Positions 8,101 to 61,682 of a DNA stretch of 64,000 nucleotides are shown here, piece by piece. The position numbers and the translations under genes were made by a program. The stretch lies in the NCBI GenBank assembly GCA_000004985.1, contig GG738861.1; one strand, 5' to 3'. The stretch's first letter is position 1. Every line of letters starts with the position of its first letter. The DNA is from Naegleria gruberi (taxonomy: Eukaryota). A model generated the notes under the pieces. It was not told where the DNA came from. It saw nothing but the letters and a program-made list of their open reading frames with translations, and did not search any database.

Positions 8101-9136
8101 TCCATCTCCATATTCTCAAAGTAGATTTGGATTACAATTATCTCATGGTGAATGGGTTGACTTGTTGAAGGGAAGAATTTTCATCAAGGTTTCCTCTACT
8201 GAAAATCCAAATGGTCACTTGAGAGCTCAATTGTACTGTAGTGGTAAATGTAATTTGCCACCAGCAGTTTCAACAACTTCTCCATGTACTGTTAAGAACG
8301 CATCTCAAGTTATTACCTTGTACGATGAAGGAGCTACCTTCAAGTCAACTGGATTTACCAATGGTCCTTATGCTAGTACTAGTCCTGATTACTATGTTGC
8401 CAACATTACCTATCCATTCAATCCAATTTGTGGTAATTCTTCTTATTACTTTGGTCTCAAGAAGGGTGGATTCCAACTTTACAGAGGTTCAGTTGTCAAT
8501 GTCGATACCAGTGTTTACAAGTACTTTGAATTTTTCATTAAGGGAACCAATAACTCTGGTGTGATTGAATTGGTCACTAGTTTTGCTTACTACAATACCA
8601 CTTCAAAGACCTATATTAATATCAAGACTGGTATGCCAACCAATGCTACTTATGTTCAACACTACAAGATTGATGATACTCGTATCACCAGAGTTAGATA
8701 TCCACTTGCTGATATTGGATTCCAAGGAGTTCAACCATTCAGTAAATTCGCCTTCTACTTGGGTAACCAGGGACAATACAGAGAAATGATTATTGACAAT
8801 ATTCGTTTCGTTGGTGATCAAGGAACTGAAGAAACATCCAGATTTATCACTTCAAGTGAAATTAAGACCTGGGGATCTGTTTCTACATGTGGTGCATCAG
8901 CTAGTCCAGATGTTGATCCATTGAAGATGTCATCCTTATTCTTTGATGTCACCAATGAAGTGAGATCAGGTCAAGAAACACCTATTGAACCAGGTACTTC
9001 ATCTATTCCTGCACCTTCATCAAGCAATACTGCCATTCCAAGAGCTTCTGCTTTTTCTGGTGCTTCTGCTATTGGAATGAATATGCTCATCATGGTTATT
9101 GTTGCTTTGGTTTCATCCTTCTTCATTGCTTTCTAA
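5108..9136 (+). CDS. Secreted or GPI/TM-anchored G8-domain plus parallel beta-helix protein (CEMIP/TMEM2-like). Two exons: 5108-6399 and 6445-9136
   Basis: N-terminal signal peptide (LFLLLLIVSLVTCQ). G8-like segment (LRSITVLNGGSLIFDN...WIMGSATCPI...VLTFYG...SKGIGFLSGSRVQIFG). A 'GRYSFHLH' motif like GRYPIHFH of CEMIP/TMEM2. Many NxS/T sequons. C-terminal hydrophobic tail (IGMNMLIMVIVALVSSFFIAF). An intron with GTAAGT and TTTTAG boundaries joins the two ORFs in frame. Confidence 0.6.
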
Positions 9137-16390: not shown

Positions 16391-18022
16391 ATGTCAATGC
16401 ATCCGAGTCATAGTGGAAATCATTTAAATGTTCCTGCTGGAAATGATGGAATGACCAGAGTTAAATCTATTGAATTTTTACATTTGGGATATGAACAACA
16501 AACTCCTCAATCATTATTTCACAATTTGAGACAACCTGTTCATAAACATGAACCACAAGCGCACTATAATCATTCTGAATGGGTTGCTAGTTTACAACCA
16601 ATTTTTGAGAATTATTTCCATGCTGAATTACATTTAATCAAAGATCAGGAATCACATTTGAAAAATACTGTGAGAAGAATTGTAAAGAAAATTTCTGAAA
16701 AGAATGAAAAGGGAGAATCATTCTTTGTTGTTGATTTGTCACATATTGTGAGACAGATTGAGAGATGGAGAAAGGCAATGACAATCTATCCAAAGGATCA
16801 ACAAAAGATTGAAATTGATGATCGTGGTGTGAGACCTTTCTATGCTGTGAAATGTAATCCAAATGAAAATATTGTAAAGGTTTTGTACATGATGGGATGT
16901 GGATTTGATTGTGCCAGTGAGGCTGAAATTGCACTCGTTTGTGAGACTTGTAAAGAAGTTGATACTTGGTTGGAAAATAATCAACAATTCTATGAAAGTT
17001 TGACAATTGTTAATCCAGATCCTTCATTGGAACAAATTAAGAATAGAAGATTTGTTCCTGGACGTGATATCATATTTGCTCATCCATGTAAACAAATTTC
17101 ACACATGGAATATGCTGCAAAAGTTGGTGTTGAGCTTACTACGCTCGATTCCGTTTGTGAAATTGAAAAGATTGCAGAACATTGGAAGGCTGCCAAGTGT
17201 GTAATCAGAATCAAGACTGATGATTCACATGCAACTGTTGGTTTCTCTGCCAAATTTGGCTGTAGTAAGTTTGGTCAAACTATTCTCCTCGAAAAAGCAA
17301 AAGCTCTTGGTGTTAATATTTATGGAATTTCATTCCACGTTGGAACCAATTGCTCAGATACAAATTCCTATAAGAAGGCCCTTCAAGATGCTGCAGAGCT
17401 TGCAAAACTTGCAATCAAATATGGATACAAGCTCTCTTTGATTGATATTGGAGGAGGTTTCATGGGTAGAATTAATGATGAAAATCCAATGGAAACTGTA
17501 GCCTCTCAAATCGTTCCTGAAATTCAAAAACTCTTCTTGAGAGATGAATCAACCAATGCAGACGATTCAATCATTGATCCAAAGACTATCAAATTAATTG
17601 CAGAGCCAGGTCGTTACATTGTCAGTGCTTCACATACCCTTGTCTGCAATGTTCACACTGTTAAGGATATGAGATTGGAGAATGAGCAATTGAAGAAGGA
17701 AGGCATTCCAACACCTGACGATTTTATCTATTACCTCAATGATGGAATTTATGGCTCTTTTAATAATATTGTCTTTGACTATGTCCACTTAGTTGTAAAT
17801 ATGATCATGTCCAAGTCAACCAAACATGAAAAGAAGTATGCATCTACCTTGTTCGGGCCTACATGTGATTCATTAGACTGTTTGAGTAGAGGATATCCAT
17901 TACCTGAGCTACATGCAGGAGATTATTTGTTTTTCAATAATTTTGGAGCTTACACAACTGCAGCTGCCTCAGATTTCAATGGTATGAGAACCAAAAGAAT
18001 GTTTTACATTTGGAGAAACTAA
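16391..18022 (+). CDS. odc: Ornithine decarboxylase (PLP-dependent, fold type III)
   Basis: 'PFYAVKCNPN' contains the PLP-binding Lys. 'IDIGGGF' is the glycine loop. 'GAEPGRY' and 'FGPTCDSLD' (substrate Cys) are present. About 100 aa of N-terminal extension is low-complexity. Confidence 0.9.
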   Translation: MSMHPSHSGNHLNVPAGNDGMTRVKSIEFLHLGYEQQTPQSLFHNLRQPVHKHEPQAHYNHSEWVASLQPIFENYFHAELHLIKDQESHLKNTVRRIVKKISEKNEKGESFFVVDLSHIVRQIERWRKAMTIYPKDQQKIEIDDRGVRPFYAVKCNPNENIVKVLYMMGCGFDCASEAEIALVCETCKEVDTWLENNQQFYESLTIVNPDPSLEQIKNRRFVPGRDIIFAHPCKQISHMEYAAKVGVELTTLDSVCEIEKIAEHWKAAKCVIRIKTDDSHATVGFSAKFGCSKFGQTILLEKAKALGVNIYGISFHVGTNCSDTNSYKKALQDAAELAKLAIKYGYKLSLIDIGGGFMGRINDENPMETVASQIVPEIQKLFLRDESTNADDSIIDPKTIKLIAEPGRYIVSASHTLVCNVHTVKDMRLENEQLKKEGIPTPDDFIYYLNDGIYGSFNNIVFDYVHLVVNMIMSKSTKHEKKYASTLFGPTCDSLDCLSRGYPLPELHAGDYLFFNNFGAYTTAAASDFNGMRTKRMFYIWRN

Positions 18023-18092: not shown

Positions 18093-20219
18093 TTAATTAT
18101 TGAAATTCCTAGCGATTCTTGGCATAAAATTTTTCATTGTGTTTGCTAAAAACTGAGCTGATGGTAAATCTCTCTTTCTCTGATCATCTGCAGAGGTTGT
18201 TGCAGTTGAAGAGCTTTCATGACTTGATGTTGGAAGAGAGGATGCTTGATCATTTGTTGAGGAAGAAATGGAGTCTAAGGGAGGACCACAATTTGGTGGT
18301 GAAATGTTGACAACGAGAGCTTCAATTGCATTCATAATAGGTCCATAAACTTTGGTTGTTCTTCCATATTTTGAGGAAAAGTGTTTTAGTCCTCTCATAT
18401 CTCTATCCAAGGAATTGAGAATATTTGTTTTAATCAGAGGTACATTTGAAATTTCATTATCAAAAAATAATTCGAAATGTACTTGGGCTGCCAGAGCAAA
18501 TGCAAATATAAAACTTGATAACATGCCTGGGAAATAGGGATTATCAACAATTTCACTAATTTCATCCGCATATTTGAGCATTTCCAATTTCACAAATCGT
18601 TTGTCCTTTGGATTCTTTGCGAGGACCACTCTTAATGCTTCAAGTCTGTGTAAAGCAACATTGAGTTTGTCCATCATTAGACCTATTTGTACATATTCTG
18701 GAACATGTGATCTTCCTTTGTGGCTCTTCTTCATTAAAATGTGTAAATCATCCAATACAGACATTTGCTGCGCAAAAGTAAATTCATTAAGGTCCGCATC
18801 AAGTATTTCAACAAAATTCTGTGGTAATTCATTTCCTGTTGCTATTTTGTAAGACACTGCAACTAGATTGCTATATTTTTGGCCCTTATTCCAATCCAAT
18901 CTATTGTCATAGAAAAATATACTCGTAACTCCTCTCTTCTTATCTAAATTATTTACAATAAAATGTTCGCTATTTCCAAAACATGGCAAACCTCGAGCAA
19001 TTTGTCGTGCTCTTCTTTTAAAATACTGGTCAACCAGTGTTAAATAATTACTCGAAAGTTCATCCTCTCCCTCTCCAGCTAAAAAGAATGAAATATAATT
19101 ACATGTGCAGGCAACAGCAAATGATTCCAAATCATCATAAATTTTCCCTAAATACTTTTTACACTCGTTAAATGCTTCAATGGCTTTGTCTCTTCTGCCC
19201 ATGCTGCAGAGTTTTGAAATTTCAATACTTTGTAATGGCTTAACAACTTACTATTGGTCACACAGAGCCTGAATTGAGTAAAAAAGTGAAAGACTATATT
19301 CATTATCATCTAATTCTTCCGTTCCATTTCGAAAAAACAAATCCTCCATTCTCGTTTGTTGCATAGTTGACATTCCCATTGACAACTTTCTATAATAAAT
19401 ATCTACAGTTTGTTTTTTTACAGAATTCTTTACAAAAGTATGAGCCCATTGTGTTTGTGGTTCCATATTTTGATTCCAAATCATTAAATATTTCAAATTA
19501 TCCTCAATTTTATCTGAATGATGATCTTTATCCTTCTTATTCTTTCTAATATATTGTTTGTTCTTTCCTGGTGTATATTTACATTCCCGTCCATAGGTCA
19601 CACATTCTGTGCATTTCGGTTGTTTTTTATCACATTTCCTGTGCAGTTTTCTGCAACCAACACAACTCAGTGTTGGTTTAAATTCGCCATCATGATTCGT
19701 TCGACTTTGACTAGAATTAGATATTGATAATGGTACCACAGCAGTAGCAGTAGTACTACTATTCGTTTCATTATTACTATTTTCGTCCAACATTGTCATT
19801 GATCCAACAATATTACTATTATGACTAACAAGTAAAACTCTTTCCGAAGGCAAGGCTTCAACACTTTCTAGCCTATTTTCCTTTGATTTTTCCATATTCA
19901 TCATCATCACACCATCACCAGAGCATGTTGATATTAATTGATGATCACAACTAGTACTACCTACTACTCCATCATGATATTGCCGTTGCTGTTGATATGA
20001 ATGTTGTTGTTGTTGATGAAATTTGTTATTCGGGTGTGGTGTTGATGCTCTGTTGAGGTCTTTGGGCATTTTTCTTGAGATTTGAACCACAGCACAAGCG
20101 GTGTTTGAAAGGAGATTGAGAATTTGCTGAAACATTGTAATGTTTATTAACATTGAACAAGTTGATTGATTGGATAGGTTCTTGGATAAGAGGTTAATAA
20201 GGCAATTGCCTCTTTTCAT
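18093..20219 (-). CDS. Zn(II)2Cys6 (fungal-type) binuclear-cluster transcription factor. Two exons: ~20130-19252 and 19203-18093
   Basis: 'CVGCRKLHRKCDKKQPKCTECVTYGRECKY' fits CX2CX6CX5-6CX2CX6-8C. A 48-nt GTAAGT...CTGCAG intron joins in frame to a downstream region resembling the fungal transcription-factor middle-homology domain. The true start is uncertain; the ORF-track ATG overlaps the stop of the neighbouring gene. Confidence 0.6.
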
Positions 20220-21709
20220 TCCTCCTCAATTGATTCTATGATTCTTAACTTATTCGCAGTGGTTTCAACATTGGCAAACGGAAGATCAACCTCCAAATTG
20301 GCTGGAAAATTGGTATTCTTCTTAATGAGGTGGATTCCACTCACTGAAATCTTGGTTCTATAAATGTCTAAATAGGTGAGCTTGGTGAGAGTTGTAGAAT
20401 TGGCAAAGTCCTGCGCTGTATCATCGTCAAGAGTTGAATTTCTACTAATTCTCAAATCGTTCAAGTTTTGATAGGTATCAGATTCTGTAATGATTTTTGC
20501 TGAACTCGTCTTGATACGTGTATTGTCTAAATCTAAGGATTCCACACTGCTTAAATCACACTTTTGGAATAGGGTCGATCCATAGTAGGAAATAGTGTTA
20601 TCTGCAATGGAAAATGTGTGAAGATTCTTTAACCATTTACATTGTATCATGGCATCATATCCTTCACTTGTCCCACCCATCTTATTCTTGGAAATATTAA
20701 GGCTTCTCAACTTAGAAAGGTGAGAACTTTCGAATATAGCTTTAGCTCCTTCGTCCATTATTTCATTGAAACCAATGTTTAGTTCTGTGAGATGCGATAA
20801 ATCTTCACAATTGGCAATGTATTTTGCTCCTTCAGTACCAATACTATTTCTACACAATCCAAGTGTTCTAAGATTCTTGAGTTTACCACTTTCACACAAA
20901 TCCTTAATACCACTTGTTTCAATGCCACACCAATACATTTCTAAAAAAGTTAAATTGTTGAGATAGGGACTATTGGCTAAACATGTAGCTCCTGTTGAGA
21001 GCAAGTGTGTTTGTGCAAGATCCAATGTTACCAAATTTGACATATTTTCACTGCTGGCAATTATTTCTAAACCTTCACTTTCAATAAACGTCTCTGCAAG
21101 CTTTAAACATTTCAATTTAGGACAATTATCGACAATCACTCTAATTGTGTCCTTAGAGAGAATATTTCTACTCAAGACTAAAGTTTCCAAGTTTGGAACA
21201 TTTTTAAAACCATTCACTGTACTGTCACTCTTCAAGCTATTGTAATACAGATTCAGATACTTGAGATGAGATACATTAGGAGTTGACAAAAATGCGTCCA
21301 ATCCACTGTTATTAATACTAGATTTCCCAATTGTTAAATATTGTAATCTAGTCAACTTGCTTTCACCAATGAGTGAAATTTCATCCTTCAAACTAGTTCT
21401 CTTTTCAATGTGCAAACTAGTAAAACAATTTGCAAAACTACTATTCAACCTCTTTTTCAGAGTGACAGGACCACATGAAGACCAGCTATTTGTATTCAAA
21501 ACCAAGTTTAAATTACCACACACAATCAACCATTGCTTTGAAACGAGAATACATCGACGTAAAATTTGAGCATTTGGTAAATAGGAGAGAATGATTGTGA
21601 TCATCTCATCCGGAAGATAGAATGGTTCGTTGCCTGATGACAACAAGTCGGTGTTGGCTTTGGTTTTCTTTTCATTTTTTTGATCTCCGAAGGTTTGTTT
21701 TCTTTTCAT
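20216..21709 (-). CDS. F-box / RNI-type leucine-rich-repeat protein
   Basis: F-box 'LPDEMITIILSYLPNAQILRRCILVSKQW' followed by about 14 repeats of the type 'L..L.L..N.IG.EGAK.I'. The ORF-track start is GTG; the first ATG is at 21709 (MKRKQ...). Confidence 0.65.
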   Translation of the reverse strand: MKRKQTFGDQKNEKKTKANTDLLSSGNEPFYLPDEMITIILSYLPNAQILRRCILVSKQWLIVCGNLNLVLNTNSWSSCGPVTLKKRLNSSFANCFTSLHIEKRTSLKDEISLIGESKLTRLQYLTIGKSSINNSGLDAFLSTPNVSHLKYLNLYYNSLKSDSTVNGFKNVPNLETLVLSRNILSKDTIRVIVDNCPKLKCLKLAETFIESEGLEIIASSENMSNLVTLDLAQTHLLSTGATCLANSPYLNNLTFLEMYWCGIETSGIKDLCESGKLKNLRTLGLCRNSIGTEGAKYIANCEDLSHLTELNIGFNEIMDEGAKAIFESSHLSKLRSLNISKNKMGGTSEGYDAMIQCKWLKNLHTFSIADNTISYYGSTLFQKCDLSSVESLDLDNTRIKTSSAKIITESDTYQNLNDLRISRNSTLDDDTAQDFANSTTLTKLTYLDIYRTKISVSGIHLIKKNTNFPANLEVDLPFANVETTANKLRIIESIEEE

Positions 21710-22150
21710 TTTTTTAGATGGTGTTGATTCATTTTTTCTAATTTTTATTAGAAGTTTAAAATTTATTGCAAATATTAAATATTTGACTGATACATTGCAA
21801 GAATGAAAAGTGATAATTTTGCCGATGAATTGGTGGAAAATTCTTTCATCAACCGTAAGAATTCTAAGGCACGGCACTAGCACTCACACAAGGAGCAACT
21901 TAAGCTAATAATTGTTGTGTTCGATTTTAGAATACAAGTGCTTGACTTGCACATTTCCAATGTTTTCGTTCTGGCATGGTATTTGTGGTGCTACTACTGT
22001 GAGGAAAGAATCAATTTTTTGGATGTAAATTGTATTTTAAACGCAAATGAATTAAGAATGTTCTTCAAGGGTTGGACACAATTTGTACTACTAAAACTTT
22101 ATAATGATTGGACCAATTATTGCGAAATATGGATCTCAAATATGTTACAA

Positions 22151-23065: not shown

Positions 23066-24751
23066 TTATTTTACTTTTTTGTTTTTTTTCAAATCAGAAA
23101 CAATTGATTTGATATGTTCTTTCAAATCAAATTCCAATGTTTGGAAACTCTTGATTCCTGTATCATAACTAATCTCAGCAACATATGATGAAAGTGGAAA
23201 CTTCCTAATATAGTCTCTTAATAAGAAAGCAAGTGGATTGGCTGGAATACTTTCAACGTTATGAACGAATAGAAACAATGTAGGTTGTGGAACTGGTAAT
23301 TTCCTTTCAAATTCTTTCCAATCAACAAACGAAATGTCTTCCTCCAATCTTCTAATTCCAACATTTTTCATTACAATATTCATGTCATACTTTTCTCCCA
23401 TATTGCTAGTAAATTGAACATTTGGAATAATATCTCCTAAAAATTCCAATAACTCTTCTTGATTGTCATGATTGTGTCCTTGTCCGAAAATGGAAATTTT
23501 GGCATTGATTACAAAATCAAGTTTTGAATCTCTTTGAGGTTTGGCATCTGCTAAGATATTTCCCTGCTGAGAATTAGTACCAGATTGGCTACATTGGCAT
23601 TTTCTTATCAATGGAGCAACAGGTTTTTCCACATATCTAATGGTGCTTTCTGAAGGAATCACTCTGAATAACACAATTGCTATTAAGGCAACAAGAATAC
23701 AAAAGAACCACATTATTCTATTGGTAAATTTGGAAAAATTATCCTTGGATTCTTGTAATTGTTTCCTGATTTCTGCAATGGCTTTGAGATTTTCATCAAT
23801 GTTATTGAACTTTTCTTTTGAGTTCTCAACAAGAGTCTTAACACTTTCTATTTCGGTTGATAAAGATTCTGAACTATTATTCAATGCTTGTTGTGATTCT
23901 AATGCTTTAGTCTCGATATCATTAGAAATCTTTAGAATCTGTTTCTCCAAGTTCAATGCTGAATTCTCAATCTTGTCAGAAATTTCTCTTTTAACCTCAT
24001 TTGCAATCAATTCTTGATTATCTTTAAATTCTTTCGATTGTCTAACCAACTTGTCTTGTAATTGATCTTCTAACTTGGAAACATGCTGTAAAATAACATC
24101 TTCAGAAGCTTGAATCTTTCCCGTAAACTTGTTTGATAGAGAGCTCTCTATATTTTCAATTTCCTTCTTCAAATTATTTTCTACATCTTTCACATTTGTA
24201 GAAATTTGAATTTGTTCTTGTTCAATTTTCTGTTTCAACCCATCAAATGCCACACTGACATGCTCCATGACAGCATGTTCTGATTTTTCCATCTTTTCAT
24301 CAACTCTTCTCTCCAGTTTTTCCTTTTCATGTTGCAGTTCATCAAATGATGGATATTGATCTTCCAATTGGTCAACTTGGTCTTTAAGAGATTCAATCTG
24401 TTCTGAGCGAGCAATGCACAGTTCAACTTTCGAATTCAGTTTTTGATAATTTTCCTCCAACAAGGTTGAAGAAGGAGATTGGTTAGTTTCCTCTTCAACG
24501 TTGTTAGATGAACTTGATTCAACTGGTTTAGTTTCGGTTTCTTCTTCAGAATACTCTACTCTTTCGAATGAATCTTCTTTGATTGGTGAGTCTGCAGATT
24601 GTGAATCTTGATTGGAATTAGCTTGCACCATTTTTTTTATAGTTTCTAAACGTGATTTACCCACTTGCATAATGACATGTTGTTTTGGCAGATGACAAAT
24701 TGATTGATCATCACGTTTGAGTTCATGTAAAATTGGAGCTTGATTAAACAT
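23066..24751 (-). CDS. Coiled-coil protein with a single TM helix and a C-terminal globular domain
   Basis: Long heptad-like E/K/Q-rich segment, then 'IMWFFCILVALIAIVLF', then about 200 aa of non-repetitive sequence. The ORF-track start is GTG; ATG is at 24751 (MFNQAP...). Confidence 0.5.
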   Translation of the reverse strand: MFNQAPILHELKRDDQSICHLPKQHVIMQVGKSRLETIKKMVQANSNQDSQSADSPIKEDSFERVEYSEEETETKPVESSSSNNVEEETNQSPSSTLLEENYQKLNSKVELCIARSEQIESLKDQVDQLEDQYPSFDELQHEKEKLERRVDEKMEKSEHAVMEHVSVAFDGLKQKIEQEQIQISTNVKDVENNLKKEIENIESSLSNKFTGKIQASEDVILQHVSKLEDQLQDKLVRQSKEFKDNQELIANEVKREISDKIENSALNLEKQILKISNDIETKALESQQALNNSSESLSTEIESVKTLVENSKEKFNNIDENLKAIAEIRKQLQESKDNFSKFTNRIMWFFCILVALIAIVLFRVIPSESTIRYVEKPVAPLIRKCQCSQSGTNSQQGNILADAKPQRDSKLDFVINAKISIFGQGHNHDNQEELLEFLGDIIPNVQFTSNMGEKYDMNIVMKNVGIRRLEEDISFVDWKEFERKLPVPQPTLFLFVHNVESIPANPLAFLLRDYIRKFPLSSYVAEISYDTGIKSFQTLEFDLKEHIKSIVSDLKKNKKVK

Positions 24752-24776
24752 CACGTTTACCACACACTTTAAAAAA

Positions 24777-26312
24777 ATGGAACCTAAACATCTTGGACAT
24801 ATTGCCTTCTTGTTTATTTTCAGTGGTTTGCTTGTATGGCTTGTATTTTATTCGAAACTATTAGCCAGAGTGCCAGACGACCTTTCCTGTTTGAAAATAC
24901 ACGACTATCACATCAAGAGAGAAAAGTACTTATTGTCATCTCCATTAAAAGTTGGATTTAAACTTCATTCATCAGGTTGCATCACAGAATATACGCACAG
25001 CAATTGTCTTGTCATTCTTTCACAAACTAAACATTCGAATGGAACTAGTTCAGATTATTATTTGAAATCTCAACAAGGAATTACAATTACAAAGAAATCA
25101 ATTCAAAATAATGAATTCCAAATAGAAATTACTCCAGTTCATCATGACCATTCAAATGTCGATAAATTACCAAAACAATTGAACTTGGATTTGACATGTA
25201 ATTCCAAAAATATTGAAAGTGTAACTATTCCTCTATCCACACAAATATTTTCCGAGCAAGTATTCAAAGCATATAGAAAGAATAATCCAGAACTCAATCA
25301 TGTTAACATTCTAATTGCTGGAAATGTTGGATCTGGTAAAAGTACTCTTGTCAACTCGTTCTATACTTGTGTGACAGATCGTGTCAAGTTTACAGTTCCT
25401 GCTCTAGTCAATAACAATCACACCACAATTGAACTAAACAAATTGAGATTGAATGTGATGGATTATTCAACAGATAGTTCAATTACTTCGAATATTACCA
25501 TTCTGGACACTGTCGGCATTACAAAATATAATTACAATTCGAAAGAGGCAATTGAATTGATTTTATCAGGTGAAAATCCGAATATTTACCTTGAAGGAAA
25601 TATTAAGAGATCAGAAATTGATATCAAGCTTCTTGAGGAAAGACTGCGAGAGTTGGCAATTGTATTCGAATTGAAAACTATGAGTACTGAAGAGGAATAT
25701 TTGTTAAATCTCTTTTTTGCACACAATACGCCAGAACATCAACAAAAGTTACAGAACTATGTCAAGAATAATGATTGGAATTCGTATATTGAAAAGAGAA
25801 AGAAAGAAATTAAATTTAAAAAGGATAATTTGGATAAGTTGGCTGATTTGGAGCTTGAATATAATACCAAAGATGCAATTGTTAAACAAAATAAGGTTTT
25901 ACTAAATACAGAAAAGGAAAAATTTGAAAAAGGACTTGCCAACAAGAAGATGGACAATAAGATTAACAATAAGGTTCATGCTATTGTCCTGCTCGTTTCT
26001 CAACCATCAATAGATTCAGATCATTTACTTCAGGATAGTATTAAGAATTTCATTAAGGAAATTTCCATTCATGGAATTTATCCCATTATTGGTGTGACTC
26101 ATCTCTCAACCAATAATGAAAGTATAGTTATTGAAACTGTTAAGAAATCTTTAGGATTTGATGCCAACAATATATTCCTTGTACCATTCAATACCAATAA
26201 GGAGAAGAATTTTGAAGTTGACAAGAAAATACTATCTCTCTTACTTGAAGCAATCACAAGAGGCAACGATTTTAAAGAACAACGAAGAAGTCAAGTTAAA
26301 GATGAATTGTAA
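24777..26312 (+). CDS. Membrane-anchored P-loop GTPase, AIG1/GIMAP-like, with a coiled-coil insert
   Basis: N-terminal TM helix (IAFLFIFSGLLVWLVF). Walker A 'GNVGSGKST'. G3 'ILDTVGI'. After an insert of about 150 aa rich in coiled coil, 'HAIVLLVSQPS...IIGVTHLS' resembles the AIG1 conserved box. Transcribed divergently from the 23066-24751 gene with a 25-bp gap. Confidence 0.45.
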   Translation: MEPKHLGHIAFLFIFSGLLVWLVFYSKLLARVPDDLSCLKIHDYHIKREKYLLSSPLKVGFKLHSSGCITEYTHSNCLVILSQTKHSNGTSSDYYLKSQQGITITKKSIQNNEFQIEITPVHHDHSNVDKLPKQLNLDLTCNSKNIESVTIPLSTQIFSEQVFKAYRKNNPELNHVNILIAGNVGSGKSTLVNSFYTCVTDRVKFTVPALVNNNHTTIELNKLRLNVMDYSTDSSITSNITILDTVGITKYNYNSKEAIELILSGENPNIYLEGNIKRSEIDIKLLEERLRELAIVFELKTMSTEEEYLLNLFFAHNTPEHQQKLQNYVKNNDWNSYIEKRKKEIKFKKDNLDKLADLELEYNTKDAIVKQNKVLLNTEKEKFEKGLANKKMDNKINNKVHAIVLLVSQPSIDSDHLLQDSIKNFIKEISIHGIYPIIGVTHLSTNNESIVIETVKKSLGFDANNIFLVPFNTNKEKNFEVDKKILSLLLEAITRGNDFKEQRRSQVKDEL

Positions 26313-39473: not shown

Positions 39474-40065
39474 TTTTTTCAATTTTGATTTTGCAATCCC
39501 GAGTTCATCACATGTTCATTGTTCTTTAAATAATATAAAGCAGAACAAGGTTCATCATGATTCTTTACAATTTGTATTCTTTGGCAAATCTTAAGAAGAT
39601 TATTTTATATTTATCAACACTTAATACATTAAAGAAGTTACAACATCTGTTGTTCCTAGTTGAATTCCTTAACTTTTGTTTGGAAAATATTAAGGATGTA
39701 ATAGTTGTTCGTTGAAGATGAACATGTTCATCATCACTCTCATCTTAATATTTTCCAAATTATAAGTATCAGTTGCCTCGATTCCATAAGAGATATAGTA
39801 AGATTTTTTCTCATCAAAAGTTCGCAAAGAATCTGTGTACATTTTGCTCTCGATTGCAACCAACACTGGTTCCTAATCGAGACTTTTTTGGATACCTGTA
39901 AGACTTTTTAGTGTAGAGGTGTAATGGGTCCTTTGAAAATAAACTGTAAAATTGAGGCAAGCCTTAACGAACTCTCTTCTACAATAGAGCGCCAAGTCTC
40001 TCCTAATAACAAACCACAAAAAAAGATACTAAGGCTGAAGGGAATATATTGAAAATTTTTATCAT

Positions 40066-42091
40066 CATGCCTTCTAATATTAATAATCGTGGTCATAGTG
40101 AAGATGATAGTGATGAGAGGTTGATAAATTCAAGCCTTTCATTGGCTAAACCATCTAATAGAGCAGGTATTCAAACTGATGAGGATTTTGATGTTACAAG
40201 TCTTCATGAAACACAGGAAGCCATCAAAAAGAAATTGTTATTAGCAAAAATGGACTCACAGTATATGGACGACGATGATGATGTTGATAGTGAAGTAAAG
40301 TTTGAAAAGTTATCAACCAAGGGAAGAAGAAACCCAACAAAACTTGCAGAAATGAATTCCGCCTCAAATATGAGTCAAACTTCGTCATTCCAAAGAGGTG
40401 AAAAAAGAAGAGGTATTAGTAGAAGATTTGCCTCAACAATGAACTCTCGTAAAGGTCTAGATACTGGTAGTCAAATGGATACATCAAGCAATTATAGTGA
40501 TGATAACTCTGATACCCAAAGTCAACTTACCTCCGACAGTGGTGCCGATAGATCAACCTTAGATGATGAAGTTGCCTTCACTCATCAAGACGACTTTGTA
40601 CAGTTAAATAATTTGATCTCACAATTTAATATGTGTGGATTCCCAGTTTTAATCTTTGATAATTATGCAACAATAGAATATTTGAATCGAGAAGCAGAAG
40701 ACCTCTTTGGTGTATTCTCCTTCTCTGTTTTGGGAGAACACGTAAGTGAGCTGTTCCTTGAAGATTCAGTTTGTGAAGTACAACAAGTCATTGAAGATTT
40801 TACAGGAAAACCAATCTTCAACAATTCTGATGGTGCATCTGTTACATCAATCAGTAAGGAAGTTGGAGCTGAAGAATTAAAAAAGAGAAAGGATACACTA
40901 ATGAAAATCAGAATATTGAAAGGAAAAGCAACAATACTTAAAACATTTTTCTCTGTTAAAACAAGATTCATTACGATTCAAAAATTGGGAGTTGAACATT
41001 TTGTAGCATATATGGAAGTGATACAAGACAGTATTGAAGAAAAGAAAGAAATGGCTTTGAGAAAGGTTTACGAAGCCATCACAGATTTGTCAGTCATTCC
41101 AATTATTTCAATTTCTCAACAAGGTATTATTCAAACATTCAATACTGCATGCACTGCAACATTTGGATACTTGAAGAAAGATGTTCTAGGTAAAAATGTG
41201 AAAATGTTATGCAATGAAAAGGATAGACAAAAACATGATTACTATCTTCAAAGATATTTGAAAACAGGAGAGAAGAGAGTAGTAGATAAGACAAGATTTT
41301 TGAAAGCTAAAACAAAGAAGGCTAAATCAATCAAGATTGAATTAAGAGTTTCCGAAATTATTGATGTAGGAAGTAGTTCTTCATCATTTGTTGGTTTTAT
41401 CAGAGATGTGAAGAACATGGTAACTAAGGAAGAACAATTGACAAGACTTGCAGACAAGATTTTCCCTAAGAATGTTGCTCAACGTATCAGTATGGGTCAA
41501 CAAGTTATTGATATTTTCGAAATGTGTAGTGTGTTGTTCTGTGACATTGTGGGTTTCACAAAGATGTCGAATGGTAAAAGACCAGAAGAAGTTGTCTCAA
41601 TTCTCCATGAAATTTTTGGTAGCTTTGATGATGTCTGTACAGCTTTCCAATTAGAAAAGATCAAGACAATTGGTGATTGTTACTTTTTAGCTAGTGGTGT
41701 TCCAAAATTCGTTCCTGAACATGCTGATAATATTGTAAAGGGAGGTTTAGCCATGATTCGTGTGATTCAACAATTTTGTAAAAAAGAAACCACTGTAGAC
41801 CTAAAAGTAAGAATTGGTATTCACAGTAGTTGTGATATTATTGCTGGTGTTGTCGGTAAGACTAAACAAACCTATGACTTGTTCGGTAAAGGCATAGAGG
41901 TTGCAGAAATTGTCGAATCAACAGGTAAAACCAATCAAGTGCAAATTAGTAACTCTACCTATCAATTACTGCAATCGGAGAAGCTTAAGAGTTTGTTTAG
42001 TGTTCATTATGAAGAAAAGGAAGAATTGCTTCTTGAAAAGGTTGGCAAAGTTGTTATTCCAGAAAGAACGTGGATTACCGATTTGCAATAA
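40066..42091 (+). CDS. PAS-PAS-(class III nucleotidyl cyclase homology domain) protein with a C1-like single cyclase domain
   Basis: The C-terminus carries CHD motifs: 'LFCDIVGFTKM' (metal Asp 1), 'KIKTIGDCYFLASGVP' (metal Asp 2) and 'RIGIHSSCDIIAGVVG'. Where the canonical 'TVNTASRMES' lies it reads 'GIEVAEIVES', so Asn and Arg are absent. Two upstream PAS-like blocks are present: 'FPVLIFDNYATIEYLNREAEDLFGV' and 'IPIISISQQGIIQTFNTACTATFGYLKKDVLGKNVKMLC'. Confidence 0.7.
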
Positions 42092-46671: not shown

Positions 46672-48392
46672 TTAAGTGAAAACTATGGCATGTGCCATCT
46701 TTGTTAATAGTTCTACTCCTGCATTTGTGAGATTATTATTCATAATGCTTAGTCTAGTCAACTGTTTCATATTACTGATGTGTTTTGCTCCTTCGTAACC
46801 AATATTACACTTGTAGGCAATTAGAGTAGTCAACTGCGTCATACCACTTACATATTGGGCGCCTTCATCTCCAATATTATTGCAACTAATATTGAGGTCG
46901 CTCAACTCTGGAATTTGGCAAATTAATTTCACTCCCTCACTTGTAATACCAGTGTTTAACAGGTCAAGTTGTTTCAAATTCTTCATGGATGAAATAATAG
47001 ATGCACCTTCGTCCTCAATTTGGTTTTCATTAAGTGAAAGATTAGTTAATTGCTTCATGCATGACAAAATTTTGGCCCCTTCTGCTGTGAGTTGAATATC
47101 GCAAATAGATAGGTCTGTTAGGTGGCACAATTCAGTGATGTATCTTATTCCTTGATCTCCAAGTCTATTATACATAACTTCAAGTGTTGTTAATTTGTTT
47201 AATTGAGCAATAGCTGTCAAATTGGTAATCCTATTAGCGCTGATTTTTAGAGTGGTCAGGTTCTCAAGGTTAGATAACGAATCGACACCTTCGTCACCTA
47301 TGCTATTAGAATTCAAATTAAGTTCAGTCAATTGGTTTAATTGTCCTATGTAACTGGTTCCTTCCCATCCTAAAGAATTATTAATAAGTACCAGGGAAGT
47401 TAATTGCTTCATTTCTCCTATTGTCTTTGCTCCTATTGGGTCAATTCCACATCTATAGGCATGAATGGATTTGATTTGCTTTAGTTCACTAAAATATTGA
47501 ACTCCTTCGCTTCCAATTGAGTTTCCATCAATATCAAGAAATTTCAAATTGGATAATTTTGAAATGAACTTGCAACCTTGTTCATTCAATGAAGAATCTT
47601 TGCAAGAAAGATGAGTTAATTTTGTAAGTTTGGTTATTGAATTAATTCCTTCATAACTAAGTTTTTCGCTATCCACCTTAAGTGACGTTAATTCTGACAA
47701 TTGACTTATGGATTCCATTCCATCATTAGTTAATCCTGTTCCAGAAATGCTTAAACTAGTTAATTTTTTCATATTTCCAATACATTTAGCTCCTTCATCT
47801 CCAATCTTATTCCAATTAACATTTAATTCGGTCAATTGATCCAATTCACTTATTCCATTAATAGTATTTTTATCAAGTCTGCAGCAAGCAACCTCAAGAC
47901 TAGTCAATTGTCTCATTCCATAAATAATTTTCAAAGACTCTTCTGAAATCCAATTCCAACCAGTGTACAGTCTTTTTAAATTTTGCATTTTCATCAAAAC
48001 TTTAAATAATTTCACATCAACAAGCTCTGTATCACTTTTGTTAAATTCAATACTTTCAATATTTTGTAAAAATTCACTTCTTGTTAAATATTTAATATTT
48101 TCGGTTGTAATTTCTTTAGAAAATTTGAAGGAAAGTTTCGAATGTGATTTAATGACTTTTAAAAATTGATATGAAATTAAACTACAAGTTGTGATGATAA
48201 ACGAAGGCTCCAAATAATTAACAATTTCCAAACAAATTTCATTAGGAAATAAATTGTTTCGATTAATTCTACTTTCCACTATTTTCGAATATTCAACAAG
48301 GTCATAACAAATGAAACTACTTACTCTTTCCGAAATCAAGCATCTTGTTGTTATTAGAAAAGAAGGAGGTGATCAAACCTTTGATTTTTTGC
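46672..48392 (-). CDS. F-box / RNI-type LRR protein, paralog of 20216-21709. A short 5' exon probably lies near 48392-48312
   Basis: F-box-like 'EICLEIVNYLEPSFIITTCSLISYQFLKVIK' followed by about 16 repeats of 'L..L.L..N.IGDEGA..I'. The main ORF has no ATG near its 5' end. An upstream ORF (ATG at 48392) can be joined through a GTAAGT...AAAATAG intron in frame (...MLDFGK|MESRINRNNLFPNEICLEIV). Confidence 0.6.
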
Positions 48393-49186: not shown

Positions 49187-50404
49187 AATGGAATCATCAC
49201 TTCTTCATCTATTATTGATGATATCCATAACCATTACAATTTTGCATAGTGCTCATAGTAAAGGTTTGTAATTTTAAAAATCATCATCATGCCTTAAACT
49301 ACCTTACCTTCCCATTATAGTTATGGCCTTACCTACATGTTTTGGTAAATTAAGCTCCGATACAGCTAATGTTTGCAGTGGAAGAGGTACATGCACTGGG
49401 CCAGATATATGTCGATGTGATGAGCCATCATTATTCGGAGGTTCAGAGTGTGAAATTGCATTATGTGGAGGATTACTACCAACAGATCCAAATGTTTGTA
49501 GTGGAAGAGGTGTATGTAGTGTTGTGTCAGGTTCTTTTGCAACATGTTCATGTGTTGATGATTCCAATTTCTCCCCATCAAATTCATATGTTGGAATGTT
49601 TTGTGAAATTCCAACATGTCTTGATTATGATCTTGTGGATTACTTTCATGATAAGTCAAATATTTGTAGTCTGAGAGGAAAATGTGTTGGTTTGAATACT
49701 TGCAATTGTGATAGAAATTCAACATTGCCTTTGGAGGATTTTCGTGTGAAAAGTCTGGATTTTCCTGTTTTGGAACACATGCAGAAAATTCACAATCTTG
49801 TTCAGGAAATGGAATTTGTATTGATGCAGATGTATGTCAATGTGATAAGAATCATGTTGGATTTGACTGTTCCATACCAAAATGTTTCAATATTTCTGCA
49901 ACAGATTCGAATGTTTGCACTTCAAAGGGAAAGTGTACGAATGTTGATACATGTCAATGTAATAGTGGATATGTTGGAAATTCATGTGAATATTATCAAT
50001 TATCTTCATCAGAAACAACCAACGTAACAATTTTGGTTAAGAGGTTGAATTTTACTTGTTTTGGAATTGAAAAGACAAGCGCTCTAGTTTGTTCTGGAAA
50101 AGGAAGCTGTGAACATTCAAATGTTTGGACATGTTTAGACGGATATTTTGGAGAAAACTGTGAACAGACATCTTGTTTTGGAATTCCAGCAAATAATTCT
50201 CAAACTTGCAATTCAAGAGGAATTTGTAAAGATTACAATCAATGTGAATGTTTAATTATTTCAAATAATACTCTATTGAATGGTAGTGATTGTTCACAAT
50301 TGTATTGTCAGGGATCTGATAATCAATTTCATCTTTCCTCAACTCCAGAATCTTGTTCTGGAAATGGAAAATGTACCATGAATGGATGTAAATGTCATGG
50401 TTGA
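49187..50404 (+). CDS. Secreted EGF-like (tenascin-type) cysteine-repeat protein. Exon 1 is 49187-49262; the frame is interrupted near 49735
   Basis: Signal peptide 'MESSLLHLLLMISITITILHSAHS', a 56-nt intron, then repeated 'CSGRG.C....C.C...[FY].G..CE' units. At 'ttgcctttggagg' the repeat continues only in the +2 frame (FGGFSCEKSGFSCFG...CSGNGICIDADVCQCD...). The rest of the window's stretch to 50404 is open in that frame. Confidence 0.55.
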
Positions 50405-55624: not shown

Positions 55625-55966
55625 TTGCATGATTCGTGGTTTATTTTGAATAATTGTTCTTTAATTTCAAAACAATGGTTTAATGTGATCAAGGAACGTT
55701 CAAAACTTGTTATTCAATTTAAAAAACAATTTACAGAAAATAGAATTGAATTGTTAATGAAAAGTCAATTCATGAATAGTATTGTAAATATTAAGTTTTC
55801 TAATAGGTTGCTTAACTCTCCAGATAAAGTTAAATTCATAAGTGAAATGAAACAATTAACATCACTTAATATTGCTAACAATCAAATTGGTGTAGAAGGA
55901 TCCAAATTCATACATGAAATGAAACAATTAACATCACTTTATATTGGTGCTATTAGCGTAGAATAA
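55625..55966 (+). pseudogene. Truncated fragment of the F-box/RNI-LRR family (F-box-like region plus two LRRs)
   Basis: 'NNCSLISKQWFNVIKERSKL' plus 'NQIGVEGSKFIHEMKQLTSL' repeated twice. Same repeat consensus as the 555-aa paralogs, but only 113 aa and then a stop. Confidence 0.4.
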
Positions 55967-57339: not shown

Positions 57340-58948
57340 TTAAACCAAATTGTGAGTTGGCAAATTTGTTGCACTAACAGTACATGGTGTAGTATCTGGA
57401 GTGACGTAGGTATTAGTAGTGAATTTCAATGGAGTCAAAGAGACACCACCAATAGTACTATCAAAGGTCAATTCAACCATAGCAGCAGTCCATCCACTTG
57501 TTGGATTATTAATTAAAACTTGCCATTCGAGTGATTTAGTTTCAATTAAGGTTTGATTTTGCCAAACATTGGATCCAATGGTGGTAGTTCTGAAATCGTG
57601 TGCAGTTGGATTGGTGGCGTACCAAACTTTAACACTGGATGGCTTAATTCCATTACTAACTGAAACATAAATGACAACACCTGCATTCACATATTCATGA
57701 GAGAAACTGTACTTTGGAAGAATTTGATTATTCAATCTGGAAGTGTAGAATGTTCCAAGAACAGCAAGAACATCAGTGTTGAGCATGTAGTGACCAGTGT
57801 TTGGAAGGAAACGAACATACTTTTCACCCTTAATCTTTGAATAGGAAAGTGCATTAAGATCTCTATACATTAAGGTGAGATTAAATTATGAAATTATGAA
57901 AGAAAACTTACGGAGCAAAGAATTCATCACCCATAGAAAGTATTTGATACTTTGGAATAGTTTGCAATCTAACATAATTAGCTGGATCAACAATATCTGT
58001 CAAACTGTCAAAAACATCATTGAAAAGATAATCAATGACACCTGCAGAAACATAATCATGGAAAGCAAGAGGCCAAGCACATAAATTATTATAAGTTCTC
58101 AAAATGAAATCTCTTGTTCCAAATACAGGAATAACCATTGGAGCAATTGCAGAAACTCTTGAATCAACTGCAGCCAACAACAAGGTGGTCCATCTGATAT
58201 TCAATAGGAGGAGATTAGTTAATATATTATTCGAATGGTTAATAATGAAAGTGATGAAAAAGAACTTACCCTCTCTTTGAAGCACCACTAACAAAGAATG
58301 TTTCAACATTATGATTAACTTGTTTCTTAACAAAAGCAACAACAGCATCCATTGCCATCTTACTTCCCTTAACTTGAGGTAATTGAGTAACATACAATAA
58401 ATTAGATGGATCACTTGTATTACTCATGAAACGATTCCAACCGAATCCAATAATAGCATCTTCAGTTCTACTAGTATGAGTAGAATCAGAAGCATAGGTA
58501 ATTGGTTGATTTGGTACAATATATACAATAGCAGTAATACTCTTTGTGGTAACTGCAAGATTATAAGTGAAGGAAGGAACATAAATTGGTGAAGCTGATG
58601 AATCAGTTGCTCCAGGAACATCAGCATTGGTATTACCATTTGTGATAAAGAAGAAACTTTCATGATTATTCTTATTCAATTCATTTGGAATTGTAATTTC
58701 CAAATAATGGAACCAGGTGTGAGCTGAGCCAACCTCTGATTCAGGCAACCAAGTGAGAGAGGTAACATTCAATGTGTAGATGGTAGCACCAGTGATGGTT
58801 CTACTACTGATTAATTTGTAGGCATAAACACTTTCTGGTAAATTAACATAGTTTCCCAAAGATTGTTTGAAATTGACTGAAGTTGAGTGGACGAAACTGC
58901 ACAAACAGACCATGAGAATGGCCATAATCACAATATTTAACTTGTTCA
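57340..58948 (-). CDS. Secreted alpha/beta-hydrolase-like protein, PhoPQ-activated-pathogenicity-related (PqaA) family-like. Three exons: 58948-58270, 58203-57912 and 57862-57340
   Basis: Signal peptide (MNKLNIVIMAILMVCLCSFVHS). 'FFVSGASKRGWTTLLLAAVD' is reconstituted across intron 1 (GTAAGT...ATATCAG). 'LSMGDEFFAP|DLNALSY' lies across intron 2 (GTAAGT...TGTATAG). The family assignment is from memory of the PqaA family, not from a search. Confidence 0.45.
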
Positions 58949-59913
58949 TTGTTAAATAGTATTGTTTTGTTTTTTTAAAGTTTAATACATAGTGTTTGCT
59001 CCAGCACAATGTTTTTATTGTGTTGGAGCATTTATTTAATTATGGCATTTGATTGACAGTTTTGGTTTATTATGCGCTTAATTTTCCTTCATGTGTTGTG
59101 TGTTTACAACTTTTCGCAACTATTGCATTAACACTTTAATAATAATAGAGTAATAGATCTATTTATGGAAAGTTTCAATAGTTTTCAGAACTCGTAAAAC
59201 AAGCTTTAAGGTATAATAACAATGCTTTTGCTGACAATCAATATTATGTTTTTGGCTAAGATGATACACTAAAGGAATTCTTCTGTTTAGAGCAATGCGT
59301 AATCATTAGTTAATAGTTAAGACGAAATATTTCCAATAACTGCGTCTCGTCAAGCAGAGTCTGTGCATGGTATGCAAAACTGTAGTGGTATCTTTTGTAA
59401 TATACCTTAATCATGAATACATTAATGGCAGACGATCTTAACCTTAATAATTTCTATTCAAAAAACAATTTACCTATGAGTAATTCCTTATTACAATTTG
59501 AACTGTTTAAGAAATTCAATGCAATAAACAACAGCTTCAAATTCATCTTGTTTTCCTCTTTCCAATATCTAAAAGATCATTTAGTTAACTTTCCTCACCT
59601 TCCTCCTACAGAGGAGCAAGGGAGAAACGAATATTGAAATCTCTTCCTCTTCATTGAATACTCTCAACACATTGCCCTCCAGTAAAATTTGTGAAATCAA
59701 AAGACCCTGGAAAATTCTCAAAGGATAAAAAATTAAGCAACAAGTTGAATTGGATTATGTGAATGTTTAGCAAAGAGTACCATTTAGGAAATAGTATTAC
59801 TTTGCAAATACCACCCATTATAATAATCATCATCTCTGTTCTAATGATTATAATGGGTGGTCACTAACACAATTTTCAAATGATTAGTGACAAATCAACA
59901 CAATTAAAAAAAA

Positions 59914-61682
59914 ATGAGAGTCCACCAACACAAATGTTCAGTTTGTCTTGAAGATGACGATGAAGAATTGGCACTCTATTCCTGTGTTCAATGTAATGTC
60001 AAATTATGTGATTTCCACAAGAAGAAACACTCAAAAAAATATTCCACTCATGAAATTAGTCCACTTTCAGATCAAATTTGTCCTCAACACAATTTAGCCA
60101 TAAATATTTATTGTAGAACTTGTGAGAGTTTGGTTTGTCCAACGTGTGGTTTTACAAAGGAACATAAAGGACATGATTGTGCTCTGATAGATGATGCAAG
60201 TGAAGAGGAACGAATCTTATTGCCGAAACTAGTGGATGAACTAACTTTGAAAATTGAAGAATGGCATAAGGAGAAGGGTAGTTCACAAGATGAAGATTTA
60301 AAAACAGAGTTGAGTGTTATTGAAAAGAAGAAAATGGATTTGAAAGAACAAGTTTGTCATGAAATTGAAAAGATGAAACAAAAATTGGAATTGAGAAAGG
60401 AAGAATTGAATAGGGAAATTGATACAAAATGTAATGAAAAGAGTTCTATTGTGAATAATCTGATTTCCTTCAAGGAAAAGACTCTAGATTTGGAACGAAC
60501 TTTTAAGGAAATTGACAATATGTCAAATTTTGAAATGATGTTTGCCAAGGTTGTTAAATACAATCAAGTTAAGAAGGATTTCAAATTGGCAACTGAAAAG
60601 GAACTATTCACTCACTTATCAGATCTTCATAACATTGATCTCATTAACTTTTACACAATTGTCAGTCAGGTAATTACCGTCGTTGAGAAAATGGGAAAGA
60701 TTAAAGCAGAATCCATTCAAAAGAAAGATTTAAAAGTGGAATTCACCAATCTAGGAGCAGAAGGAAGAACTGGTCCCACACAGATTGGGAATTTTTACAA
60801 TAACAATCTTCACATGAAAGATAAGGTCACTCTCATTAACAGTGGAATTCAACAGTGGACAGTTCCATTCACTGGAAAGTATAAAATCATTGCTGCAGGT
60901 GCATGTGGTGGATCAAATCCTTCCAATGGAAAGAGAGGAGGTTACGGAGCTATCATTTCAGGTGATTTCACTTTGGAAAGGAATACAATTTTACAAATAC
61001 TTGTTGGTCAGCAGGGAAGTTCTGCTATTGGTGGAAGTGGTGGTGGTGGTGCAGGTGGTGGTGGTGGAACATTTATTTGCTCAATTGGTAATAATAGCAG
61101 CAAGAAAATTGAGAATTCTTCTCCAATCTTGTTAATTGCAGCAGCTGGAGGAAATGGTGCTAGTTGGAGTAGTTGGAAAACGAATGGACCTGGTGGTAGA
61201 TTACCAAAAGCTCAAGATGCTTCACTCTCAATTGGAAAAGCTGGTAGAGGAAGTGGTGGTGCTGGATGGATTAATGATGGAGAAATGGATAAAACTTCCA
61301 CTAATGGATTTGGTGTCAGTTTCTGTAGAGGTGGTCAAGGTGGTAGTTATAATGGTTCTTATGGAGCCAATGGTGGATTTGGTGGTGGAGGTGGTAAGTT
61401 ACTTCAATTCCACATTTATTTACAAATATTTTACAATTATTTTACAATTATGAATATATTCATATTATTATGATTTTAATTTCAAATTAATTTAAATAAG
61501 CTTCTGTACATGAAGGTGGAGGTGGTGGAGGTTATATTGGTGGATCATGTGTTCCTGAGAATAAGTATGATATACCATTTCCTGATTATGGAGCTATTTC
61601 ATTTAATGGAGGAATTAATCAAGATGGAAAGGAAGATGCTAATAGTACACATGGATATGTAACTATTCAATTACTTCAATAA
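59914..61682 (+). CDS. B-box zinc-finger / coiled-coil (TRIM-like) protein fused to an ALK-type glycine-rich domain. Two exons: 59914-61393 and 61501-61682
   Basis: Two B-box-like Cys/His clusters ('CSVCLEDDDEELALYSCVQCNVKLCDFHKKKH' and 'CPQHNLAINIYCRTCESLVCPTCGFTKEHKGHDC'). About 200 aa of coiled coil. The C-terminus is 'GACGGSNPSNGKRGGYGAIISGD...GGSGGGGAGGGGGTF...AAAGGNGAS...GGAGWINDGE...GGQGGSYNGSYGANGGFGGGGG|A SVHEGGGGGGYIGGSCVP'. A 107-nt GTAAGT...AATAAG intron closes in frame. Confidence 0.6.

Follow-up and report, generated by a model that had tools for sequence, protein, structure and literature searches.

A TRIM-like B-box/coiled-coil protein of Naegleria gruberi with an ALK/LTK-type glycine-rich domain

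The locus and its gene

This work concerns one gene on a 64,000-nucleotide stretch of Naegleria gruberi DNA (assembly GCA_000004985.1, contig GG738861.1), a stretch referred to below as the window. The gene fills positions 59914-61682 of the plus strand, is made up of two exons and encodes a product of 553 amino acids (aa), in which two B-box zinc fingers and a long helical region are followed by a glycine-rich domain (GRD) of the kind found in the receptors ALK and LTK. Just such a fusion, of a B-box/coiled-coil protein with an ALK/LTK-type glycine-rich domain, had been proposed in an earlier note on the locus, and Pfam, phmmer and the predicted fold all bear the proposal out. The same note had taken the host for an amoebozoan, which is wrong: N. 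gruberi is a heterolobosean (Discoba), and the nearest homologues of the protein come from Naegleria and Willaertia. The features of the gene are as follows.

59914..61393, plus strand: exon 1, 1480 nucleotides (nt); codons 1-493 and the first base of codon 494, as an uninterrupted open reading frame (ORF)
59935..60051, plus strand: B-box1-type zinc finger, aa 8-46, from consensus fit, Foldseek and phmmer
60079..60180, plus strand: B-box2-type zinc finger, aa 56-89, from PF00643, consensus and fold
60187..60726, plus strand: helical coiled-coil region, aa ~92-271, from AlphaFold2 (AF2), Foldseek and phmmer
60727..61393, plus strand: exon-1 part of the ALK/LTK-type GRD, aa ~272-493, with TNF-like strands and poly-glycine segments
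61394..61500, plus strand: intron, 107 nt, GTAAGT...AAG, phase 1, 14% GC
61501..61682, plus strand: exon 2, aa 494-553 and the TAA stop at 61680-61682, with the last poly-glycine segment (GGGGGGYIGG) and the beta-strands that close the GRD

Both B-boxes, the coiled coil and the greater part of the GRD are encoded by exon 1 alone. Because these parts share one ORF, the fusion can be read straight from the DNA and is independent of the intron, and a separate gene for the glycine-rich exon is likewise largely ruled out. The intron carries in-frame stops, and its GC content lies far below that of the exons (35-36%) in a window that averages 32.9%. The earlier note had held that the glycine pattern stays in frame across this intron, and splicing to the acceptor at 61500 does restore a motif, GGFGGGG-x3-HE-GGGGGGYIGG, that is present in every close homologue. 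Three further in-frame acceptors occur, at 61515, 61521 and 61530, and only 61500 restores the motif; since the homologues all have it, 61500 is preferred.

The 5' end of the gene is equally clear. An in-frame stop lies three codons 5' of the ATG at 59914, the homologues of N. lovaniensis and W. magna begin at the same residue (MR...C..C), at B-box1, and the 900 nt upstream of the ATG hold stops throughout in all three frames, which leaves no room for an upstream exon within that distance. On the opposite strand only short ORFs of 44-68 aa run across the gene, and no second GRD occurs elsewhere in the window. The locus is thus a real, intact and spliced N. gruberi gene.

The glycine-rich domain

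The GRD spans aa ~272-553, that is, about 280 aa starting from nt ~60727. The earlier note was right to see a real and non-random domain here and set its size too low, at roughly 230 aa from 60830; the domain is longer because the TNF-like strands that precede the poly-glycine runs belong to it. In a Pfam scan, PF12810 (ALK_LTK_GRD) and PF00643 (zf-B_box) were the only families to pass the curated cut-offs, so the profile check suggested at the outset came out positive for both. The PF12810 match, which aligns aa 320-552 with positions 7-243 of a 243-position profile, reaches 50.8 bits where the gathering score is 24.5 (E 3e-13). When the protein was compared by phmmer with solved structures, chains of the human ALK GRD came out on top (E 1.4e-18) over two stretches, aa 277-372 and aa 376-521; these were followed by LTK and Caenorhabditis elegans SCD-2, and then by TRIM3, TRIM72, MID1 and KAP1.

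Low complexity was considered as a source of these matches and rejected. The least glycine-rich stretch, aa 277-372, matches human ALK on its own with an i-Evalue of 9e-12 and a negligible bias of 0.3. Moreover, the glycine codons are a mixture of GGT (39) and GGA (32), and no microsatellite is present.

Structure prediction of the glycine-rich region, also suggested in the earlier note, led to the same family. A full-length AlphaFold model was built on an alignment of 34 sequences, and here as elsewhere in this work only monomers were modelled. Its predicted local distance difference test (pLDDT) scores exceed 90 over aa 271-553. Foldseek matched this predicted GRD to the crystal and cryo-electron microscopy structures of ALK and LTK (7n00, 7nx3, 7lrz and 7nx1) with E values from 1e-18 to 1e-20, template modelling (TM) scores of 0.6-0.77 normalised to the target, and 27-33% identity. 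In addition, non-glycine residues of the GRD core are invariant in five aligned sequences, namely those of N. gruberi, N. lovaniensis (P0161), W. magna (P0001) and two amphioxus proteins. By profile, pairwise similarity and predicted fold, then, aa ~272-553 form a genuine glycine-rich domain of the ALK/LTK kind, modelled as a TNF-like beta-sandwich with a poly-glycine helix bundle. A comparison of cysteines between extracellular and intracellular GRDs, made to look for lost disulfides, was uninformative.

B-boxes and coiled coil

The N-terminal half of the protein had been described as holding two Cys/His fingers of B-box type, and that description is right. Pattern matching shows that aa 8-46 follow the B-box1 consensus C-x2-C-x12-C-x2-C-x4-C-x2-H-x3-H-x6-H exactly and that aa 56-89 fit the consensus of B-box2. 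For the second finger, PF00643 scores 35.9 bits against a cut-off of 24.1, and among 25 homologues its zinc ligands vary little or not at all. All 15 zinc ligands are retained in the N. gruberi protein, as are all of the core motifs of the GRD.

The predicted folds agree with these assignments. B-box1, with a pLDDT of 87-95, superposes on B-box1 of TRIM28 (6o5k) with a TM score of 0.80 and an rmsd (root-mean-square deviation) of 1.3 Å, and its Foldseek matches further include PML B1 and the tandem B-boxes of MID1; phmmer also matches aa 8-92 to MID1 (2jun). The modelled B-box2 fits B-box2 of TRIM5alpha (5k3q) more closely still, with TM scores of 0.83-0.87 and an rmsd of 0.6-0.7 Å.

Beyond the fingers, helices are modelled at aa 92-198 (one long helix with a break at 122-125), 205-229, 235-239 and 246-258, mostly with a pLDDT of 81-97. 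The model of this half, a separate AF2 run on aa 1-275 with 24 B-box/coiled-coil homologues in the alignment, has a mean pLDDT of 90 and finds its best Protein Data Bank matches in the B-box/coiled-coil structures of TRIM72, TRIM5alpha and KAP1, while phmmer matches aa 54-213 to TRIM72 and TRIM3. The region is rich in charged residues (39%) and nearly free of glycine (1%). Its heptad periodicity is modest (z = 2.3, a value reached by 8 of 500 shuffles). The long coiled coil that had been noted earlier is therefore supported, and mainly so by structure prediction and by homology to the coiled coils of TRIM proteins.

TRIM architecture lacking a RING had also been claimed, and pattern matching detected no RING in the protein. 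A hidden RING exon is ruled out by the stops that fill all frames over the 900 nt upstream. Neither a signal peptide nor a membrane segment was found, the highest 19-residue Kyte-Doolittle hydropathy being 1.09, and the two zinc-binding B-boxes argue for a cytoplasmic or nuclear location.

Relatives with the same architecture

The earlier note had called this domain combination non-standard, which is fair as far as rarity goes. The architecture is rare and not unique: it recurs in N. lovaniensis and W. magna and, with a RING added, in amphioxus and on an environmental contig. The N. lovaniensis protein (XP_044556082.1, P0161) has 546 aa, the same two Pfam domains and 44% overall identity, which rises to 50% in the GRD as against 34% in the N-terminal half; conservation peaks in the zinc ligands and in the core of the GRD. 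The W. magna protein (P0001) has 516 aa and 40% identity.

Naegleria fowleri retains a decayed remnant of the gene (L003 5573-6841; VFQX01000009.1), which lies in synteny with the N. lovaniensis locus between a GMC oxidoreductase gene upstream and a Sec24 gene downstream. Both of its B-boxes are broken by stops and frameshifts, the ILVGQ...GGGGG segment is deleted, and the GRD ends after GPGGRG. In the annotation the remnant stands as a hypothetical protein of 257 aa (FDP41_011267), and a second, independent N. fowleri assembly shows the same truncated end.

The positions of introns differ among the homologues. The single intron of N. gruberi falls at aa 493/494 and the single intron of N. lovaniensis at about aa 383-389 (L002 6001-7726), while the Willaertia gene (L001 8001-9742) has three annotated introns, one of them just five codons 3' of the N. 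gruberi position (HEG|GGGGG). No synteny was found between the window and the Willaertia and N. lovaniensis loci, the gene itself being all that they have in common with it.

The literature searched describes neither B-box/coiled-coil/GRD nor BTB/GRD proteins. In the databases, the B-box/GRD homologues appear only as hypothetical or misnamed entries. Misleading names include "receptor protein-tyrosine kinase", which is attached to GRD proteins that have no kinase (N. lovaniensis P0161, amphioxus C3YJX9 and many phage proteins), and "keratin, type I cytoskeletal 9-like", which is given to members of the amphioxus family. Both look like automatic names prompted by the GRD or by a composition rich in glycine. 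"TRIM56-like" and "TRIM71-like" are further database names in the amphioxus family.

The two halves on other scaffolds

Each half of the protein also occurs in other company. The N-terminal half is about 31% identical over aa 1-265 to Naegleria proteins of the order B-box1, B-box2, coiled coil and SPRY (P0185 of N. lovaniensis and P0303 of N. fowleri), and animal B-box/NHL proteins match it as well. The closest GRDs, at 44-49% identity, sit on BTB-BACK scaffolds (P0002 and P0003 of Willaertia and P0005 of N. fowleri), and more distant ones on UBA-Kelch-BTB scaffolds. Farther afield, the GRD is frequent among surface proteins of bacteria, EGF proteins of cnidarians and tail or virion proteins of phages, and it occurs in some giant-virus proteins.

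A RING-B-box-coiled-coil-GRD architecture was found in more than 25 proteins of four Branchiostoma species and their hybrids. This amphioxus family (P0040 and P0121-P0151; B. belcheri, B. floridae, B. lanceolatum and hybrids among its sources) is large and lineage-specific, and no description of it was found in the searchable literature. A complete RING-B-box1-B-box2-coiled-coil-GRD protein, P0222, is also encoded on an environmental contig (L004 2951-4858; ENA ERZ19032580, scaffold_5072), and its GRD is 45% identical to that of the Naegleria protein. The contig is a metagenomic one of 25% GC, apparently free of introns, on which the neighbours of the gene are small ORFs and a 1715-aa protein with no Pfam match; it may come from a protist or from a giant virus.

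Whether the fusion arose once or several times was addressed with neighbour-joining trees, one for the GRD and one for the N-terminal module, made from sequences that are only 25-30% identical. In the tree of the N-terminal module, N. gruberi and N. lovaniensis pair in 94 of 100 bootstraps, and Willaertia joins the pair in none of the 100. The GRD of the Willaertia fusion groups instead with the BTB-GRDs of Willaertia. In the GRD tree, the heterolobosean domains stand together, along with P0222 and the Kelch-BTB-GRD proteins, and the amphioxus domains stand with other animal GRDs, so that the amphioxus fusion probably arose independently. As a whole the trees would fit a GRD that was shuffled repeatedly from scaffold to scaffold and are too weak to decide the matter.

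Comparison with known systems

Profile, pairwise alignment (~30% identity) and predicted fold all place the Naegleria domain in the same family as the GRDs of ALK and LTK (PF12810; 7LRZ, 7N00, 7NWZ, 7NX0 and 7NX1). Among the motifs that they have in common are FTxLGxxGxxGPT, GIQxWxVP, ILVGQxG, GGGGGTF and GGFGGGG...GGGGGGYxGG. The resemblance to ALK/LTK that had been remarked on earlier is therefore sound for the GRD itself and is confined to it, as the protein is not a receptor of the ALK/LTK type. Unlike those receptors, the Naegleria protein has an intracellular GRD joined to B-boxes and a coiled coil, and it lacks a signal peptide, an EGF module, a membrane helix and a kinase; Pfam matched no kinase or EGF family anywhere in the 553 aa, and the protein ends with the GRD. 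To our knowledge, the ALKAL cytokines bound by ALK are known only from vertebrates, and the ligand of the Naegleria GRD must therefore differ.

The likeness to TRIM (RBCC) proteins lies in the order and spacing of B-box1, B-box2, coiled coil and C-terminal recognition domain. The differences are the missing RING, the GRD as the C-terminal domain, and the host, which is a heterolobosean protist rather than an animal. TRIM proteins that have no RING are familiar, examples being TRIM14, TRIM16, TRIM29 and TRIM44, and we know of no GRD among the C-terminal domain types of the usual TRIM classification. Since a RING is lacking, the protein is better described as TRIM-like than filed as a TRIM proper.

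Two further groups carry the GRD on intracellular scaffolds. The amphioxus RING-B-box-coiled-coil-GRD proteins (P0040, C3YJX9_BRAFL) are collinear with the Naegleria protein over its full length at 24-31% identity; they differ in having a RING and in forming a large paralogous family. The heterolobosean BTB-BACK-GRD proteins are likewise intracellular and likewise have a scaffold of the ubiquitin-system type, with an N-terminus made of BTB-BACK in place of B-boxes and coiled coil. Substrate adaptors of Cullin-3, such as the BTB-BACK-Kelch proteins, have this BTB-BACK architecture.

A last parallel comes from phages. The tail fibre protein gp24 of phage Pam3 consists of an alpha-helical shaft, a TNF-like domain and a glycine-rich domain that serves as its receptor-binding tip (PMC9608196). 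Phage tips of this kind (Pam3 gp24, 7YPX; Bxb1 tail tip, 9D93) thus place a TNF-like plus poly-glycine fold after a helical shaft and use it to recognise a target. They differ from the Naegleria protein in being trimeric virion proteins that have no B-boxes, and their Foldseek E values of only 4e-4 and 4e-3 compare with 1e-20 for ALK.

Other genes of the window

The nearest gene upstream, at 57340-59009 on the minus strand, has three exons and encodes a PhoPQ-activated pathogenicity-related protein (PF10142) with a hydrophobic N-terminus; it and the B-box/GRD gene are transcribed divergently, with about 0.9 kb between them. Downstream, the next gene has several exons and encodes a Ser/Thr kinase.

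Farther away, an ornithine decarboxylase ORF at 16391-18022 (plus strand) is 100% identical over its full length to an N. gruberi protein, and a second, divergent N. gruberi paralogue of this enzyme shows 45% identity. An ORF at 40049-42091 (plus) encodes PAS domains and, after them, an adenylate/guanylate cyclase catalytic domain. The decarboxylase match fixes the source as N. gruberi, with which the PAS-cyclase ORF and the 32.9% GC of the window agree. Leucine-rich-repeat ORFs lie at 20216-21883 and 46672-48339 (both minus), and similar repeats were seen by eye only at 55625-55966 (plus). An EGF-repeat ORF at 49323-50377 (plus) resembles a gene of EGF/teneurin-like repeats that lies at an end of the N. 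lovaniensis locus (L002), a likeness that is probably one of repeats rather than of synteny. Five other ORFs of 500-1141 aa, at 396-3821 (plus), 6446-9136 (plus), 12681-14189 (plus), 23066-24763 (minus) and 24777-26312 (plus), match no Pfam family at E <= 1e-5.

Proposed function and its alternatives

The reading that we favour, with a confidence somewhat better than even, is that of a cytoplasmic TRIM-like adaptor which would self-associate through its coiled coil, use its GRD as a recognition module and have no RING-type E3 activity of its own. By analogy with TRIM proteins, the long coiled coil would form a dimer, most likely an antiparallel one, and the B-boxes would add contacts of higher order. 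The GRD would sit in the slot that holds the target-binding SPRY or NHL domain in TRIM proteins and would recognise a protein or a surface ligand. With no RING there should be no intrinsic RING-type E3 activity, and the role of the protein would be that of an adaptor, a scaffold or a sensor. It might bring in ubiquitin machinery in trans, which TRIM relatives that lack a RING are thought to do.

The slot assigned to the GRD would be that of the classical TRIM substrate-binding domain because the N-terminal paralogues in Naegleria end in SPRY. Its use as a target-binding module is proposed because it takes the SPRY slot of these paralogues, takes the Kelch or MATH slot in the BTB-BACK proteins, and is a binding fold wherever it has been studied; the GRDs of ALK and LTK, for instance, bind their cytokines, and phage tail fibres bind host receptors with it (PMC9608196). 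The complete RING-B-box-coiled-coil-GRD proteins, and the peak of conservation in zinc ligands and GRD core, also speak for this use. Taken together, these analogies suggest that the GRD may be a swappable target-recognition module on scaffolds of the ubiquitin-system type.

Several observations weigh against the adaptor reading. No N. gruberi protein was found for the locus by a word-indexed search or by an exhaustive search of representatives, and exact look-ups of five gene models (553, 548, 546, 543 and 519 aa) gave no match; the gene model is therefore one without independent annotation or transcript support. The decayed copy of N. fowleri means that at least one lineage can do without the gene. 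In addition, the trees give no proof of orthology between the fusions of Naegleria and Willaertia. The first two of these observations would also suit a dying or non-functional gene, or an artefact of gene prediction, that merely keeps recognisable domains. This is very improbable, as the frame is intact over 553 codons, the intron is canonical and low in GC, all zinc ligands and GRD core motifs are kept, both halves are modelled with high confidence, and intact homologues of similar length exist in N. lovaniensis and W. magna.

A more specific, and rather unlikely, possibility is that the protein works as a cytoplasmic innate-immune sensor, much as TRIM5alpha acts on capsids. Here a lattice of coiled coils and B-boxes would display GRDs to the repetitive surface of an invader, such as a giant virus or a bacterium, whether ingested or intracellular, and so trigger its restriction or degradation. 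Fast turnover of the family, with its decayed N. fowleri copy, would fit such a role, and so would the low identity between Naegleria species (44% overall, against 58% for ornithine decarboxylase), the apparent movement of the GRD between scaffolds within lineages, the large lineage-specific expansion of RING-B-box-GRD genes in amphioxus, and the use of the same fold by phages as a receptor-binding tip. All of this support is circumstantial: the neighbouring genes are a PhoPQ-related gene and a Ser/Thr kinase gene with no synteny to the homologous loci, and the neighbour-joining trees are weakly resolved.

The phage structures bring to mind a fibre-like homo-oligomer, in which a parallel coiled-coil shaft would gather the GRDs at one tip, as in Pam3 gp24, to form a structural or adhesive element. 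The order of helical shaft, TNF-like part and glycine-rich part is indeed that of the Pam3 tail fibre (PMC9608196), and both this fibre and the Bxb1 tail tip are among the Foldseek matches. Such an arrangement is nevertheless improbable, given that the helical region is homologous to the TRIM B-box2/coiled-coil by sequence and predicted fold, that two B-boxes precede it, that it is broken up into several helices as TRIM coiled coils are, and that the phage matches are far weaker than those to ALK. Least credible of all is a secreted or surface protein with an extracellular, ligand-binding GRD, or the variant in which the glycine-rich part is a separate gene or low complexity. Most GRD proteins met in the searches are extracellular, the bacterial ones having type IX secretion system sorting, cadherin-like or Ig-like domains and the cnidarian ones EGF; the sequence largely refutes secretion here, as signal peptide and membrane segment are both absent and the N-terminus consists of zinc-finger B-boxes. 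The variant founders on the single uninterrupted ORF that holds the B-boxes with 220 residues of the GRD, and on profile, structure-database and fold matches that are far above chance and not driven by composition.

Implications

Structural work has treated the ALK/LTK GRD mainly as the module by which two human receptors bind cytokines outside the cell, and structures of phage tail fibres show a related fold. Finding the GRD on intracellular TRIM-like and BTB scaffolds in a free-living protist widens the uses of the fold and offers a simple, non-receptor context for its study. Interest in the protein would rise if the GRD turned out to be an immune sensor, or a recognition module in general use inside cells. 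It is conceivable, though at present a long shot, that intracellular ALK-type GRDs form an unrecognised class of recognition module for B-box/coiled-coil, RING-TRIM and BTB-BACK scaffolds, taken up more than once, by heteroloboseans and separately by amphioxus, to sense invaders in the cytoplasm, with the Naegleria protein as a protist analogue of TRIM5. If that were true, intracellular GRDs would grip invaders with the same fold that phages use on their hosts. Under the adaptor reading favoured here, the logic of TRIM proteins, a scaffold with a swappable recognition domain, would operate in heteroloboseans too.

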